Source: Hormoscilla sp.
GTDB taxonomy: Bacteria > Cyanobacteriota > Cyanobacteriia > Cyanobacteriales > Desertifilaceae
Reading direction: 5' to 3'
Assembly (NCBI GenBank): GCA_051439505.1
Contig: JBFRWI010000111.1
Coordinates: forward strand, 1 to 60,129
Length of the DNA stretch: 60,129 nt
A program made the position numbers. Position 1 is the stretch's first letter. Each line of letters starts with the position of its first letter. This document shows positions 12,001-18,000 of this stretch, in pieces.

Positions 12001-15000
12001 GATGCTAGCGAGGAGTTCGTTGGCGCGGGAAATAGCACCTGGCATATCTGCTTGGGCGGGAGTTGTGACAATCTCGGCACCATAAGCTTTGACAATTTGT
12101 TGACGTTCCCGACTCATATTCTCCGGCATCGTCAGGATTAAGCGATAATTTTTGGCAGCACATACCATTGCCAAACCGATGCCCGTGTTACCAGAAGTTG
12201 CCTCAATAATGGTGGAGACTCCCGGTGTAATTAAACCTTGTTTTTCCGCCGCTGTTATCATGCTGATGGCGATGCGGTCCTTCACCGATTTCGCGGGATT
12301 CATGCTTTCCAATTTGAGCACGATTTTGGCCGCGCACCCGGAGCTTTTGGGCAGGTTTTGCATCTGCACTAGGGGCGTGCGACCGATGGTTTCTGTAATG
12401 TTGTGGTAAATTGACATGGGATCTATGCTAATATCCGATCGAGCTACAACTATAACATCGAGTATAAGTTAGAAACCGGGTTTCTCGTGCCGCTATCGAC
12501 GAGAGATCAATGCTTTTACAGCAGAAACCCGGTTTCTTGACCCACGCTCTAGACCTCGTTCCAACTGGAGGTATTCTCTATGAACGCTAAAACTATTTTA
12601 CCACCTGTCTGGTTTTTATTGGCGATTTTTGTCATGATTGGTCTTCACCGCTTGTGGCCCTTTGCACCGGTAATTTCCCCTCCTTTTACCTATTTCGGGA
12701 TAGGAGTCATGGTTGTGGGATTGCTTTTCAATCTTTCGGGCGCCTATTTATTTCGCCAAAATAACACGACCATCAAACCTTTTGAGGAGTCCAGTCAGCT
12801 AATCACCGCCGGGCTATATAATTACAGTCGTAATCCCATCTATTTAGGGATGGTCGTCATCTTAATTGGTTTGGGGATTCTTTTGGGAACTCTGCCGCCC
12901 CTAATCGTCATCCTAGCCTTTTTGGGGTTGATTCAAGAAAAGTTCATCAAGATTGAAGAACAGATGCTGACCGAAAAATTTGGTCAGCAATATTTGACCT
13001 ATCAAGAGAGAGTCCGGCGTTGGATTTGATCTTGAAAATTGTCGGAAATGTAGTCGGAAATGTAGTTGGTGGGCGGTGCCCCAATACTTCTCGGTTAACA
13101 ATTGTCATTGCGAGGGGGGCCCAAGCTGACATGTTAGGATCGCCGCTGGGATCTTCGGACCCCGTTAGCGTAGCGGCCCGACGCAGGAGGGCCTTCTATC
13201 TCCCTGACAACTAGGGCGGAGATTGCTTCGGGGGGGGGTTGACTCAATTTCCCATAAGTTGATAGCTACGTACCCCCCCCCCTCGCAATGACATCCTATA
13301 TCCTTAACCGAGAAGTATTGGGCGGTGCCCACCCTACAACATCAAGTTAGTCGGAGATGTAGTTGGTGGGCGGTGCCCACCCTACTACAACATCAAGTCG
13401 GAGATGTAGTTGGTGGGCGGTGCCCACCCTACAACATCAAGTCGGAGATGTAGTTGGTGGGCGGTGCCCACCCTACAACATCAATTGGAAAAATAAGATG
13501 GTAAACCCACCCATCAAGGCAATATGGGGCAGGTTACGGCTCCAGGGGCGCTTGCTGATTTTTAATAGGGGATAGATGCCCAAGATCGGGATCGATATCA
13601 GGGTGACTCCTTGTAGAAATGCGGCCACATCCATACTCCAAGTCAGGGTGGGCAAACCGACACCGCTATAACCAAAGGTGCGGGCAAGTACCGGGAGCAT
13701 CTGACCCGCTTCGGTAATGGCCGAGGGAATGTAATAGGCTAAGTTCGCGGCTAGGGTTATGGGCAAGTAGGCGTATACGATCGTGAGATAATCGGGCATT
13801 TCTTTGTCTAGCATCCGGGCGATCGCGTGAACGGCGTAGGTAGCGACAAAGGGAATACTCAACAGCAGGGTCACTAGGGGCAAAGCAGTCAGCAGATGTT
13901 GGGAATCCAGACTCATTTCTCCCAGTCCCAACCATGCTAAAATGCGGTGGGAGTAATGCATGAAAACGCCGCCGAATAGCAGCATCATCAAAGCAACTTC
14001 TGCCCAGAAACCCTGATGTGCTTCCAAGATGTCAGCAGCAGGAAAGCGCAAATTTAGCTGTGGAGAACGATTGGGACATGCTTTCAAGCAAGTCATGCAC
14101 AGGACGCAATCTCGGTTATCTTTTAACTGGGCGGGGTGAGAGTAAAGCGGACAACCATCTGTTGCTTGCCCTTCCGTCGGCAGAGGATTGGCAAAATTGA
14201 CTGGCGTGGCGTCGCCCCCTTTGTAACAGCCAAAACTGCTACATTGGGAACCGCAAATTTGTTGGGTCGATCGCAATTCTACCACGGACAGCTTCGCAAA
14301 CATACCATTCATGCCGCCGATGGGACAGAGATAGCGACACCAGACACGCCGTTCGTAAACTAAACTGCCAATTACGGCCCCGGCGGCAATAATTACTAAT
14401 AACCAGGATGACAGGTAGGGAGTATGGGGTAAATCCCACAGTTTTTCCCACAAATAAATTGCCACGAAACCCGCAAATAGTAGCCAAGCGCCCCATCTAT
14501 TCAGCCATTTGGTCGGCCAAGGTAACAATTCTCGCGGCCAAATCCACAGGGAGATTTTTCTCAGCCATTCTCCGGTAATCATAAAGGGACAAATGCTGCA
14601 CCAGAGGCGACCGGCAAGGGGGAAAAGTAACAGGTAAAACGGCCACCACCAGGCCCAGAATAGGTTAATGGTGATGCTGGATTCTCGGGTTTGCGGACCG
14701 ATGTAACCCATGACCGTGACGGGGATAAAAATTGCCATCACGATTATCCAGAAGCGATCGGGCCACCATTTGCTCAACAGAAACTTGCGCAACCAGGGCA
14801 TTTGGTTGAGTAAATCAACTCTAAAGGCATTTTTCCGAGATCCTACCGACCACAATACTTGTTCGGGAATGGTGGTTTGTTCTAGGGGCGTCATGACGAC
14901 GGCCCGTTTGAGAATGCTTTCCAATTCTGCTAGATTAGCAGGATATTCGTAACCGATCAAGCGGCGCAGGTTGGCTTGGTTTAATTCTAACCGATCTCGC

Positions 15001-18000
15001 CCGCGATCGCGGCAGGCTTTAGCGATCGAGTAGCGGGCGAATTCAGGGATATCTTGCTTGCGTTGGGGGAGAGTAAAGAGTTTGATTTGATGGGCTTCGT
15101 TCAGAGGAATTTTGCCGGGACTCGCTAAGATTAAGCGCACCCAAAGTTGCTCGATCGCCCCTTCGCTGCCAACTTGCAAGTTGCCAGTTTTCAGGTAATG
15201 GAACAGGCGATCGCGATCGGGCTTACTCAGTAGATGCACGTTATCGATGGCCAGGGTGCCTCTTTCCAGCAGTTCGATGGCGCCCAGTCGCTCGTTTTCT
15301 TTACCAAAAATTGCCTCGGCATTCACCAGGCCAGCTTCGTCGCGGGGCAGTTGGGCGCAGTCAATTTCAGCAAAGGGGCGATTTTTCAACCCTGAAAGTG
15401 AATGAATTAACCCGGCGAGAAAGGTTTTGCCAGTGCCAGCGGCAGCTTGAAACACCACCGGTTTCAAATCCCCGGCAGCAGCGTTAATTTGCTGGGCAAT
15501 TTTTTTAGCGGCTTTGCTGTTACCGATAATTGATTCGCCCACGGGCACGGGTCTAATGTAGGGTTGTAGCCCTTGAATTCTTGCTTGTTCCTTGGCCAGG
15601 CGCTGGGCAAAATGGCCTAAGTCTTGTGCCAGCAGACTATTGATAGCTTTCTGAATTTCGGGATAGGTGCTGGCAAGTTCGTCCCAGTCTTCTCGCCCCA
15701 GAAACCAAATTTCACTTTGAGTGAGGGTGCGAGCGCTAGCGTTATAGGTAGGGGGGCCCCGATCGGCTACCAAGGACAGGTATCCGAACAGTTCCCCGGC
15801 GTTGCGGTAGGCGATGTGAGTTTTGCCCACCAGGGAGTGGCGATAAATTTCCACCGAACCCCATTTGAGCAGGTACAAACCGACAGCAGACTGTTCTTGG
15901 CGATAGATTTCCGTTTCCAAAGGGATTTTCAGCAGTTGCAGGGAACGGGCGATCGCCTCAATGGCATCATCGCTCAACTGTCCCCATATCCTATGGAAGC
16001 TCAACCAGTCAACGCATTCTAAAATCTGCTCTTCACTGGTGGTATTGTCCCCAGGCACCAGCAGCTGTTTGCTGCTGATTTCATCTCGATCTGTGGTGGT
16101 TGGCATGGCATTCATGCTTCCTTTATACTGATTTACATCTTCTCTTATCATACCGTGGAGGATGATGCTGACTTAGTGACCGTCTCTTTAGGTAAGTATT
16201 TTAACATAAATATCAGTTGCATTAGTAGGGTGGGCGCCGCCCACCCCGAAGCGGGTGTGGCCAACAACAACCAACTGGTGCATTTCCGCACACTCCATCG
16301 GAATTGATCGCACTTGGTATATAATAGCTAGTTAAAAACAATCATCAACGTAAATATGCGAGACTCTCAACCCTATCAGCCTCTCATGCTGCGGCTGCTT
16401 CACGGTGTTAATGCCCTCTTGGTTATCGGGGCCCTGCTCACGGGATTGTTGGTTTATGATAGTTGGGATGGCAGGTTCGGCAGTTTGGGACTGTCCCGCA
16501 ATAACCGGGAATTGATTGATATCCACGGCACCTTTGGCTTTTTCTTGTTGTTTGTATTTATCGCCTTTGCTATCTATAGCATCCGCCTAGGGAGAAAACG
16601 CTTGTTCCCCGGGAATGCCAGGACAAAACTCAAGCAACTGGGCCAACCGAGCTGGTGGTGGACTCTGCACCAGCTAGCTAATACTCTGATGCTTATTGCT
16701 GTCAGCTTGTCGGTAGTTTCTGGCAAGTTGCAAAACGAAAATTGGTTGCCAAAGGGGGAATTAAATCACCCGGCTTACTTCGCACATCTATGGGCTTGGC
16801 TAATATTAACCATTGCCCTGGGCTTGCACTTGCTAATGAGTCTGAAAGCGGGAGGTTTGGTCCTGTGGCAGTCTATGATAAATGTGAAATATCGTCCGTC
16901 GGAGGATCCGCGTCAATGGCCAAGAAAACTGCGCTCCTGGTTACGTCATCCCCACTGGTAGTTCGTTGGAAAAAACGAGCATTGACAATATATGTAATTT
17001 AGCCCGCGCAGGCGGGCTTTGTTCATGTAGCCGGACCCTTTAGGGTTCGGGCGACTCCATTGGCAATGGCAAACATCCGTTATCATTGTCTAGTTATTAT
17101 ATCTTCTAGGAGGGCAAAAATGCCAGAACTGATCGAAAAACCCACTCCCATCGAACCACCGGGGAATAAACCAAAATTGATTGACGAGTATGTGGGTCGC
17201 GTTAACAGTCAAACGGAAGCTGTTAGCATCGCTCATGTCCGATCGTCCAGTGGCCGGATGGATCCCGGCGCTCGCTCGCAGTTCGATGAATTCATTCTGG
17301 TCCTCAAGGGTATGCTGCGGGTGGAGTATGAAGGAGGTTATCTCGATGTTAACGCGGGACAAGCCGTTAGTGCAAAGAAGGGGGAGTGGGTGCGCTACAG
17401 CACGCCGTCCGCGGAAGGTGCTGAATATGTTGCAGTTTGTCTGCCCGCTTTTTCACCCGACATCGTACATCTAGATTCCTAGTGTCACGTACCCGGCCCA
17501 CCATTTATCCGTAATTGAAACCGGGTTTATGTTCCCCTTGTCAAGCAGATCTAGACCTGATAGTAACAGAAACCCGGTTCCCTGCGATCGAATTGCGAAT
17601 CTGTGCTGAGAAAAGTTTACCGGAAGCAAAAGGAGATAGAGTTAATGGCGAAATACTTGAGAAACATCAATGGTCGCGAACAGCAGATCGTCAGCATTCA
17701 TATTCCCAAGACAGCAGGTACTAGCATTGCTAAGGGATTGACTGATAATGGTTTTGTTCAGACTCCACTGGTGAAAACATACTCTGTACGCAACATTCAG
17801 CGTAGGCTAAAAGGAATAGCAAAACCCGGAAAACATGCCAAAGCTCTAGATGTGAGAGCGGCAGTTGGAGAAAAAATTTGGGAAGAGTGTTTCACTTTTG
17901 CTTTTGTGAGAAATCCCTGGGATCTAATGGTGTCAAGCTACAATTGGTGGCTTCAGAAGGGTGGCAAATGGGAAATATTTCGCGAACAAGTTGAAGATAT

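Follow-up and report, generated by a model that had tools for sequence, protein, structure and literature searches.

Bacterial enhancer-binding ATPases (bEBPs, PF00158; NtrC1, PspF, NifA, LuxO, and NtrX) combine an AAA+ fold and a lid with a swappable N-terminal sensor. Among their homologues, TyrR, DhaR, HupR, and VpsR remain DNA-binding transcription factors. These four are sigma54 independent and have a degraded GAFTGA loop (PMC3162934). The Fer4_5 polyferredoxins NapH/MauN, NosR, and CcoG are polytopic membrane proteins with CxxCP-type motifs and a two-cluster ferredoxin pattern. Cysteine synthase (CysK) forms moonlighting complexes with CysE (PMC3388911) and with CymR; in these, the partner inserts a free C-terminal Ile into CysK. 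Such complexes are the closest parallel to a CysK that might sense sulfur status as a subunit.

We analyzed a window of 60,129 nucleotides (contig JBFRWI010000111.1) from Hormoscilla sp. in which features of the bEBPs and the Fer4_5 polyferredoxins meet in one gene, referred to here as the fusion gene. Its product shares the bEBP fold, lid, and exchangeable sensor. Unlike bEBPs, it lacks GAFTGA, the Walker B Glu, R-fingers, and an HTH, and it ends in a membrane Fe-S domain; unlike TyrR and its kin, it has lost the catalytic residues as well as the DNA-binding domain. The evidence points to an undescribed sulfur-status switch. We tentatively prefer to read the protein not as a cAMP-driven motor but as a regulated Fe-S redox module in the membrane, with a pseudo-ATPase input that now senses sulfur status by way of CysK.

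Architecture of the fusion protein

The ORF (13473..16151, minus strand; 892 aa) is listed in the protein collection from Met16 (877 aa), which is the likely start codon. Its AlphaFold2 model has a mean pLDDT of 94.2. Pfam models for cNMP_binding (9.8e-13), Sigma54_activat (2.6e-15), AAA_lid_14 (2.9e-9), and, over two stretches, Fer4_5 (1.1e-8) matched the protein, confirming the ORF and the fusion described in the first-pass annotation. Three absences claimed there were also borne out: no DNA-binding family was found among the 8 Pfam families matching at up to E 0.1; none of the 146 family rows aligned had the GAFTGA pattern, and 4 distant rows had GAFSFA-like relics; and neither Sigma54_DBD nor Sigma54_CBD matched the host genome (G000; 93.4% complete), while the same models were positive in 4 of 14 genomes. 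A short palindromic repeat occurs in tandem at 13340..13485, and its outermost copy contains the last codons and the stop of the fusion gene. Scanning for promoters and terminators gave signal near shuffle level, and a look through sequencing runs listed no holder of the gene with RNA data.

The AAA+ module (residues 208 to 428; 14868..15530, minus strand) scored 56.9 bits against Sigma54_activat (cutoff, 20.2). Its comparison with NtrX (Z 24.4; 268 residues at an rmsd of 3.9) shows an intact bEBP fold. Walker A (residues 236 to 243; 15423..15446, minus strand) has Ala for the first Gly, with GK[ST] retained in 118 of 120 clade-A rows. In Walker B (residues 299 to 304; 15240..15257, minus strand), the catalytic Glu is replaced by Asn (DN), and the DE pair was found in none of 120 close and 125 family rows. 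The stretch with the R-fingers is deleted (motif in 0 of 125 family rows), and 5 of 120 rows have the sensor II Arg; in the lid region, Arg 364 and Arg 416 are invariant. A true bEBP read with identical patterns had the Walker B DE, the R-fingers, and the sensor II Arg. By its sequence, the module is thus a bEBP fold without the residues required for ATP hydrolysis or sigma54 contact. Every family row examined, including noncyanobacterial ones, shows the catalytic loss, which is thus independent of the absence of sigma54 from cyanobacteria. The motif tests contradict the database names of the family ("sigma 54-interacting transcriptional regulator," "RNA polymerase subunit sigma-54," and "nitrogen assimilation regulatory protein").

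Upstream in the protein, the CRP/cNMP-type domain (residues 79 to 162; 15666..15917, minus strand) scored 48.3 bits (cutoff, 27.5) and matched cNMP folds with Z up to 18.2 in structure comparison. Its phosphate-binding cassette, with positions read off an alignment to SthK, is FGY...Y, whereas cAMP binders have FGE...R; the Glu and the Arg were each found in 0 of 120 close rows. Among full-length rows of distant members, 36 of 48 have the Glu, compared with none of the 45 clade-A rows and none of the 21 clade-B rows.

The membrane iron-sulfur domain

Residues 443 to 892 (13476..14825, minus strand) form a polytopic membrane domain with 7 hydropathy peaks and 10 predicted helices of at least 16 residues. 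It contains a CxxCP motif (C518 and C521; 14586..14600, minus strand), a CxxxCP motif (C605 and C609; 14322..14339, minus strand), and a ferredoxin-like region (14073..14255, minus strand) with eight invariant Cys (633, 637, 642, 667, 682, 685, 688, and 692) that would ligate two [4Fe-4S] clusters; the Fer4 match at 677 to 693 was below the cutoff. The two CxxCP-type motifs noted earlier are present, but they account for only part of the 12 Cys, all of which are kept in 120 of 120 close rows.

NapH and NosR models matched the domain at E 1e-6 to 4e-5. The scores are far below the family cutoffs (NapH/MauN-type models, 25.5 versus 213 bits and 28.1 versus 234 bits; NosR, 4.3e-5 and 22 versus 1,000 bits), and no CcoG model was listed up to E 1. 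The domain differs further from these families in its first ferredoxin motif (Cx3Cx4C), in about 190 additional C-terminal membrane residues, and in its position behind a pseudo-bEBP; nap, nos, and cco genes were not among the recurring neighbours. The analysis supports the proposal of the first-pass annotation that a bEBP-type AAA+ fold has been reused away from sigma54 and now sits on a membrane Fe-S domain of the NapH/NosR-like kind. On weak homology, the domain may use quinone. Ligation of heme b is not favoured, as the His residues conserved in clade A are mostly lost in distant members.

The membrane-domain target (pLDDT, 96.7) had no match among solved structures. Foldseek gave none at E ≤0.001, no clear CcoG relative appeared in the fold searches, and VIA-align returned generic helical bundles (best Z, 6.6). 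A profile search of PDB sequences gave only AAA+ and cNMP matches among the best 60 of 450, and a search of the ESM Atlas yielded only unnamed Fer4_5 clusters and generic cNMP clusters. These results do not imply that the fold is new.

Distribution, the cysK neighbour, and sulfide islands

The family was found in 220 of 301 genomes of the class Cyanobacteriia (about three quarters of the sample). It also occurs in green algae, Chloroflexota, Omnitrophota, and Scalindua, so it extends beyond cyanobacteria and is wider than first described. The near-full-length matches of 40 to 42% identity, previously taken for the same gene, belong to a paralogous clade B; true orthologues of the fusion gene, which falls in clade A, are 56 to 80% identical. 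Among relatives, cNMP, GAF, FHA, and REC/HisKA domains are exchanged in front of a constant AAA+-membrane unit, which argues that the membrane part is the constant output. Clade B and the distant members function without a cysK neighbour: 20 clade-B loci had no conserved neighbour, adjacent cysK, or sulfur marker, and in 80 mostly noncyanobacterial metagenome loci, no cysK was found and no family except the gene itself occurred in more than 9 loci.

The first-pass annotation left out a conserved partner and its sulfide-gene context, both of which we found. Of 81 clade-A loci, 72 were assessable, and 55 of these have cysK downstream (50 within 310 bases); 17 have none, and one genome (G305) has clade A without island-type CysK. 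In the window, the partner cysteine synthase A gene (11458..12417, minus strand) is parted from the fusion gene by an opposite-strand PEMT/ICMT-type methyltransferase gene (12580..13029, plus strand) that is not a conserved neighbour. The partner scored 430 bits against TIGR01139 (cutoff, 351), and the PLP Lys and substrate loops (K46, TSGNT, Q147-F148, and GTGGT) are invariant in 46 rows. Island CysK is separated from 16 other CysK by a branch with an SH-aLRT of 100 and by many fixed substitutions.

Arabidopsis CysK binds serine acetyltransferase (SAT) through a basic motif (K217, H221, and K222; PMC3388911). Island CysK retains the His and has Asn or Asp for the second Lys (H[ND][LIV]QG) in 52 of 52 rows; the partner reads HNLQG, whereas other CysK are mostly HKIQG (second Lys position in the 16 others: K, 11; R, 3; Q, 2). 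The solved CysK 3zei, which we take to be M. tuberculosis CysK1, reads HPIQG, so the SAT-binding lysine can vary. The M. tuberculosis enzyme is inhibited by an SAT peptide (PMC3388911).

Complex prediction for a CysK dimer with residues 46 to 428 scored 0.42 (best control, 0.00), passing a mark that solved complexes reached in 116 of 157 cases and mismatches in 2 of 215, although passing scores of ≤0.60 comprise only 18 solved complexes and both mismatches. At least 87% of contacts agreed between runs, and the partner pLDDT was at least 78. The model lends weak support to binding of island CysK to the fusion head. Docking via a C-terminal Ile was rejected: the fusion C terminus is variable and ends in a predicted membrane helix, so any CysK contact would use another surface.

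Clade A lies preferentially in gene islands for sulfide and low oxygen; Tolypothrix PCC 7101 and Nodosilinea PCC 7104 are examples of laboratory strains that carry such an island. Type-I SQR was detected in 31 of 34 clade-A genomes versus 60 of 266 others, counts inflated by kinship and physical linkage, and sulfur markers occurred in 28 of 81 clade-A loci (20 of the 56 loci of at least 10 kb). Of the three clade-A genomes negative for type-I SQR, two gave no match to a second SQR type, and G211 had a 26% fragment. The host genome had no match to type-I SQR, and the window is not itself a sulfur island. Genes for MerR, an ArsP-type permease, and RND efflux are among those found next to it in the islands; ArsR occurs in 8 of 81 loci, and no regulator is a constant neighbour.

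Competing readings of the mechanism

In the preferred reading, the N-terminal domain would be the input, rewired in clade A from cAMP to sulfur status, most likely by binding the dedicated CysK. This CysK would report the levels of O-acetylserine and sulfide and, free of serine acetyltransferase, would also serve as a sink for sulfide. The dead AAA+ module would couple input to output allosterically and might retain ATP or ADP binding through its GKT. The output would be the membrane part, in which two [4Fe-4S] clusters and a CxxCP/CxxxCP metal site would connect the plastoquinone pool to a partner in the cytoplasm for electron transfer. We infer this direction of signalling from the domain order.

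Somewhat doubtful, but worth weighing, is that the protein resembles CcoG and acts in the membrane as a metal reductase or electron carrier, gated by a small ligand at the CRP-type domain and physically independent of CysK; cysK would then be cotranscribed only because sulfide or low oxygen calls for both. CcoG is described as a cupric reductase with a pair of cysteine-rich motifs of the [4Fe-4S] type (PMC8267372), and the MerR, ArsP-type, and RND neighbours in the islands, the loci without cysK, and the partnerless clade B fit such a protein; the missing CcoG match, the dedicated CysK clade, and the weakly passed complex prediction do not. Signalling might also run in reverse, with the membrane part sensing the redox state of SQR-fed plastoquinone and the pseudo-ATPase head activating or tethering CysK, which would fix flooding sulfide into cysteine. 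The linkage of cysK and SQR, the CysK clade, and the complex prediction serve this scheme equally, and cysK2 of PCC 7002 is induced by polysulfide along with pdo, rhod, and tauE (PMC12466478, which does not establish that cysK2 belongs to the island clade). We consider it unlikely, however, given the swapping of classical input domains at the N terminus. Quite improbable is indirect, NosR-like control of island transcription by a membrane Fe-S sensor that acts via another protein able to bind DNA, such as the adjoining ArsR. The weak NosR match and the ArsR genes in some loci favour this scheme; the lack of a DNA-binding domain in the fusion protein and of a constant regulator nearby speaks against it. 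The active cAMP-gated motor of the first-pass annotation keeps the intact fold, GK[ST], and the two lid-region Arg on its side; with the Walker B pair, R-fingers, most sensor II Arg, and both cassette residues gone, neither the motor nor the cAMP gating is supported, and we regard this reading as very improbable.

Beyond the locus, the sensory reading could extend to an undescribed one-component signalling class, ranging from anaerobic bacteria over cyanobacteria to green algae, in which swappable sensors act through a dead bEBP ATPase to gate electron transfer in a membrane Fe-S domain without a solved fold; in sulfide-exposed cyanobacteria, a dedicated CysK would replace the cAMP input and couple sulfide load to the photosynthetic quinone pool. 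We offer this generalization as speculation with the odds against it. With clade A, the cyanobacterial islands for sulfide and low oxygen gain a concrete component that can be tested, relevant to how these cells adopt or tolerate sulfide-driven photosynthesis; clade A also offers a candidate new kind of CysK partner. Our literature search, with subscription papers and bioRxiv supplements mostly outside its reach, found no study of this architecture and no experiment on any member. The Synechocystis gene slr1529 shares its product name with a clade-A orthologue and may belong to the family; its knockout grew normally (p 0.74, supplement row) and showed a metabolite shift at 72 h.

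Architecture of the fusion protein and loss of motor motifs

The fusion gene (positions 13473 to 16151, reverse strand) encodes 892 amino acids; its protein entry in the public collection begins at Met16. Pfam matches were obtained for cNMP_binding, Sigma54_activat, AAA_lid_14, and two Fer4_5 stretches but for no DNA-binding family, as the first-pass annotation had stated. AlphaFold2 modeled the full chain at a mean pLDDT of 94.2, and structure comparison bore out the bEBP and cNMP folds. The fusion is real, widespread, and misannotated. It is also apparently unstudied: the possibility that a study of an orthologue existed had been raised, and a literature search found none of this architecture, although supplements and subscription papers may still bear on it.

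The protein had been read as a cAMP-gated AAA+ motor, with the Walker motifs left uninspected. Alignment with LuxO and NifA showed that the first Walker A Gly is replaced by Ala, Walker B DE by DN, and the sensor II Arg by Ala, with a gap across the arginine-finger stretch. Among the best 120 of 1,769 matches (i.e., the window protein and 119 relatives, its duplicate row dropped; here, close rows), GK[ST] was present in 118 and the sensor II Arg in 5, while Walker B DE and the R-finger motif were present in none. Neither of the latter occurred in the 125 rows that include the AAA+ part of a 146-row family-wide alignment. A true bEBP, read with identical patterns as a control, showed every canonical motif. 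Walker B DE, the R-finger, and the sensor II Arg are among the residues needed for hydrolysis in AAA+ proteins, and these substitutions argue strongly that the module would not act as a motor. GAFTGA, the requirement for which is described in PMC3162934, matched 0 of the 146 rows, confirming the reported lack of this loop. In clade B, the cyanobacterial paralogue group, an Asp directly follows the Walker A Lys in 21/21 rows.

The cAMP gate fared no better. The cassette Glu and Arg were replaced, mostly by Tyr, in all 120 close rows (alignment including SthK), a strong indication that the domain of clade A, the fusion gene's own group, would not serve as a cAMP gate. The good conservation of the rest of this domain across clade A suggests that it serves some other ligand or partner. 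Of 48 rows from distant members, 36 keep the Glu and 21 the Arg, and a form gated by cAMP is therefore probable outside cyanobacteria.

The host genome (93.4% complete) had no Sigma54_DBD or CBD match, consistent with the earlier failure to call a sigma54 gene. Across 301 genomes of Cyanobacteriia, DBD matches (6 at E ≤0.001, 3 above cut-off) were strong in only two, a rarity that agrees with the absence of sigma54 from cyanobacteria reported in PMC3162934. A sigma54 role for the fusion protein is strongly disfavored. In one single-contig genome of the class (G334:C1), a histidine kinase, a canonical REC-bEBP, and sigma54 form a cassette (L244:5907-10079) near a kinase-WD40 gene; this bEBP keeps GAFTGA, Walker B DE, the R-finger, and sensor II, and the sigma54 gene carries CBD and DBD. 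A second sigma54, 50% identical to the first, lies on an 11-kb contig of genome G005 (L245). Both are probably rare exceptions to the rule that cyanobacteria lack sigma54 but may be products of contamination or misassembly.

The membrane domain as the family core

Conservation across the family centers on the membrane domain. Its 12 Cys were invariant in 120/120 close rows and recurred in all 146 family rows, bar one exception at one position. They comprise a CxxCP motif (Cys 518 and 521), a CxxxCP motif (Cys 605 and 609), and eight Cys within a ferredoxin-like region (633 to 692), a pattern from which a pair of [4Fe-4S] clusters and a metal site distinct from them would be expected. The domain was modeled at a pLDDT of 96.7, and fold searches matched it to no solved structure; NapH and NosR models match it weakly, far under their cut-offs.

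Matches to the membrane part were found in 220 of the 301 class genomes. In a FastTree phylogeny of 71 of the 146 family rows, clade A (support, 99) was set apart from clade B plus an algal group (support, 90), and both from distant bacterial members (100). The named members of the algal group include Trebouxia, Picocystis, Edaphochlamys, and Ostreococcus, and bacterial relatives occur in Chloroflexota, Omnitrophota, and Scalindua; a Nitrospirota relative (P0265) has a SoxA/TsdA-type cytochrome c and no AAA+ part. Another member (P0156) bears EF-hands behind the membrane domain. The matches of 40 to 42% identity in the first-pass annotation are real family members but represent the clade B paralogue, not clade A, the only clade carried by the host.

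Among 40 distant proteins scanned, cNMP, GAF, FHA, or REC/HisKA domains preceded the same AAA+-membrane unit. Because the N-terminal domains are swapped before a constant unit, we infer a direction of signaling in which the N terminus would be the input and the membrane part the output; quinone use is likewise putative.

Sulfur context and the proposed partner cysteine synthase

Clade-A loci (n = 81; the window and the top 80 of 370) included nine that end too near the gene to assess. In 55 of the 72 assessable loci, cysK lay downstream on the same strand (within 310 bases in 50); it was absent from 17. Sulfur markers occurred in only 28/81 loci. Recurring neighbors were rhodanese (22/81), an additional petC (16), type-I SQR (9, with its identity verified), Tll0287 (9), ArsR (8), TauE, a BLH-type sulfur transferase, psbA, and cydA (6 each), and persulfide dioxygenase-like and Hdr-like genes (4 each). 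Two clade-A copies are plasmid borne within the same kind of island. Neither sulfur markers nor adjacent cysK appeared in 20 clade-B loci. Type-I SQR was present in 31/34 clade-A genomes versus 60/266 others in a 300-genome sample, a contrast inflated by kinship and linkage and based on a clade-A count that may miss fragmentary copies among 110 further matches. A link between clade A and sulfur is well supported by this context. At four cyanobacterial loci (L072, L096, L098, and L040), a heterodisulfide-reductase-like cluster of CCG, Fer4, and flavoprotein genes adjoins clade A.

The island CysK is an extra paralogue, split from 16 other CysK with a support of 100 in a quick tree of unsure root. 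Its catalytic residues are kept, and a SAT-binding Lys is replaced in 52/52 full-length copies (three short copies left out). According to PMC3388911, the motif containing this Lys is needed for SAT binding, CysK is inhibited within the SAT complex, and sulfide stabilizes that complex; the island CysK may therefore stay active at high sulfide or bind another partner. A solved CysK has Pro at the Lys site, and one genome (G305) carries clade A and no island CysK.

Complex prediction for a CysK dimer with fusion residues 46 to 428 gave weak support, scoring 0.42 (best control, 0.00). The mark that it passed was reached by 116/157 solved complexes and 2/215 mismatches, but past-mark scores of ≤0.60 belonged to only 18 of the solved complexes along with both of the mismatches, and calibration was on jobs unlike this one. 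The runs shared at least 87% of contacts, with a partner pLDDT of at least 78. We know of no similar solved complex and treat the predicted contact as a lead, not a result. The specific mechanism, in which sulfur status would be read through CysK and passed to a membrane Fe-S redox module, is offered tentatively, as somewhat short of an even chance. Against it stand the assessable loci that lack cysK, the occurrence of sulfur markers in only some loci, G305, and the solved CysK with Pro.

The host genome and the window

Features of the host also weigh against this mechanism. The window does not form a sulfur island, and type-I SQR had no match in the host genome, although other contigs carry a different SQR-like gene, one resembling persulfide dioxygenase, and cydAB. 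In this copy, a methyltransferase gene on the opposite strand lies between the fusion gene and cysK. The likely housekeeping cysK of the host is broken by a contig end (G000:C24:1-189).

With an 8-base overlap at the cysK stop, a gene encoding Fer4_13 and a metallo-beta-lactamase fold (10593 to 11465, reverse strand) is probably cotranscribed with cysK; it did not recur among clade-A neighbors. Two radical SAM genes lie at 19139 to 20614 (reverse strand), one of them encoding an NrdG-like activase, and recurrence of the NrdG-like family in 5/81 clade-A loci is consistent with a low-oxygen context. The cytochrome b561-type gene divergent from the fusion gene (16356 to 16961, forward strand) is not a conserved clade-A neighbor. 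A short palindromic repeat (13340 to 13485, 1503 to 1607, 16229 to 16245, and elsewhere) has 10 matches in the window and none in shuffled sequence, and its exact pattern is matched 347 times across the genome; a tandem copy overlaps the final codons and stop of the fusion gene.
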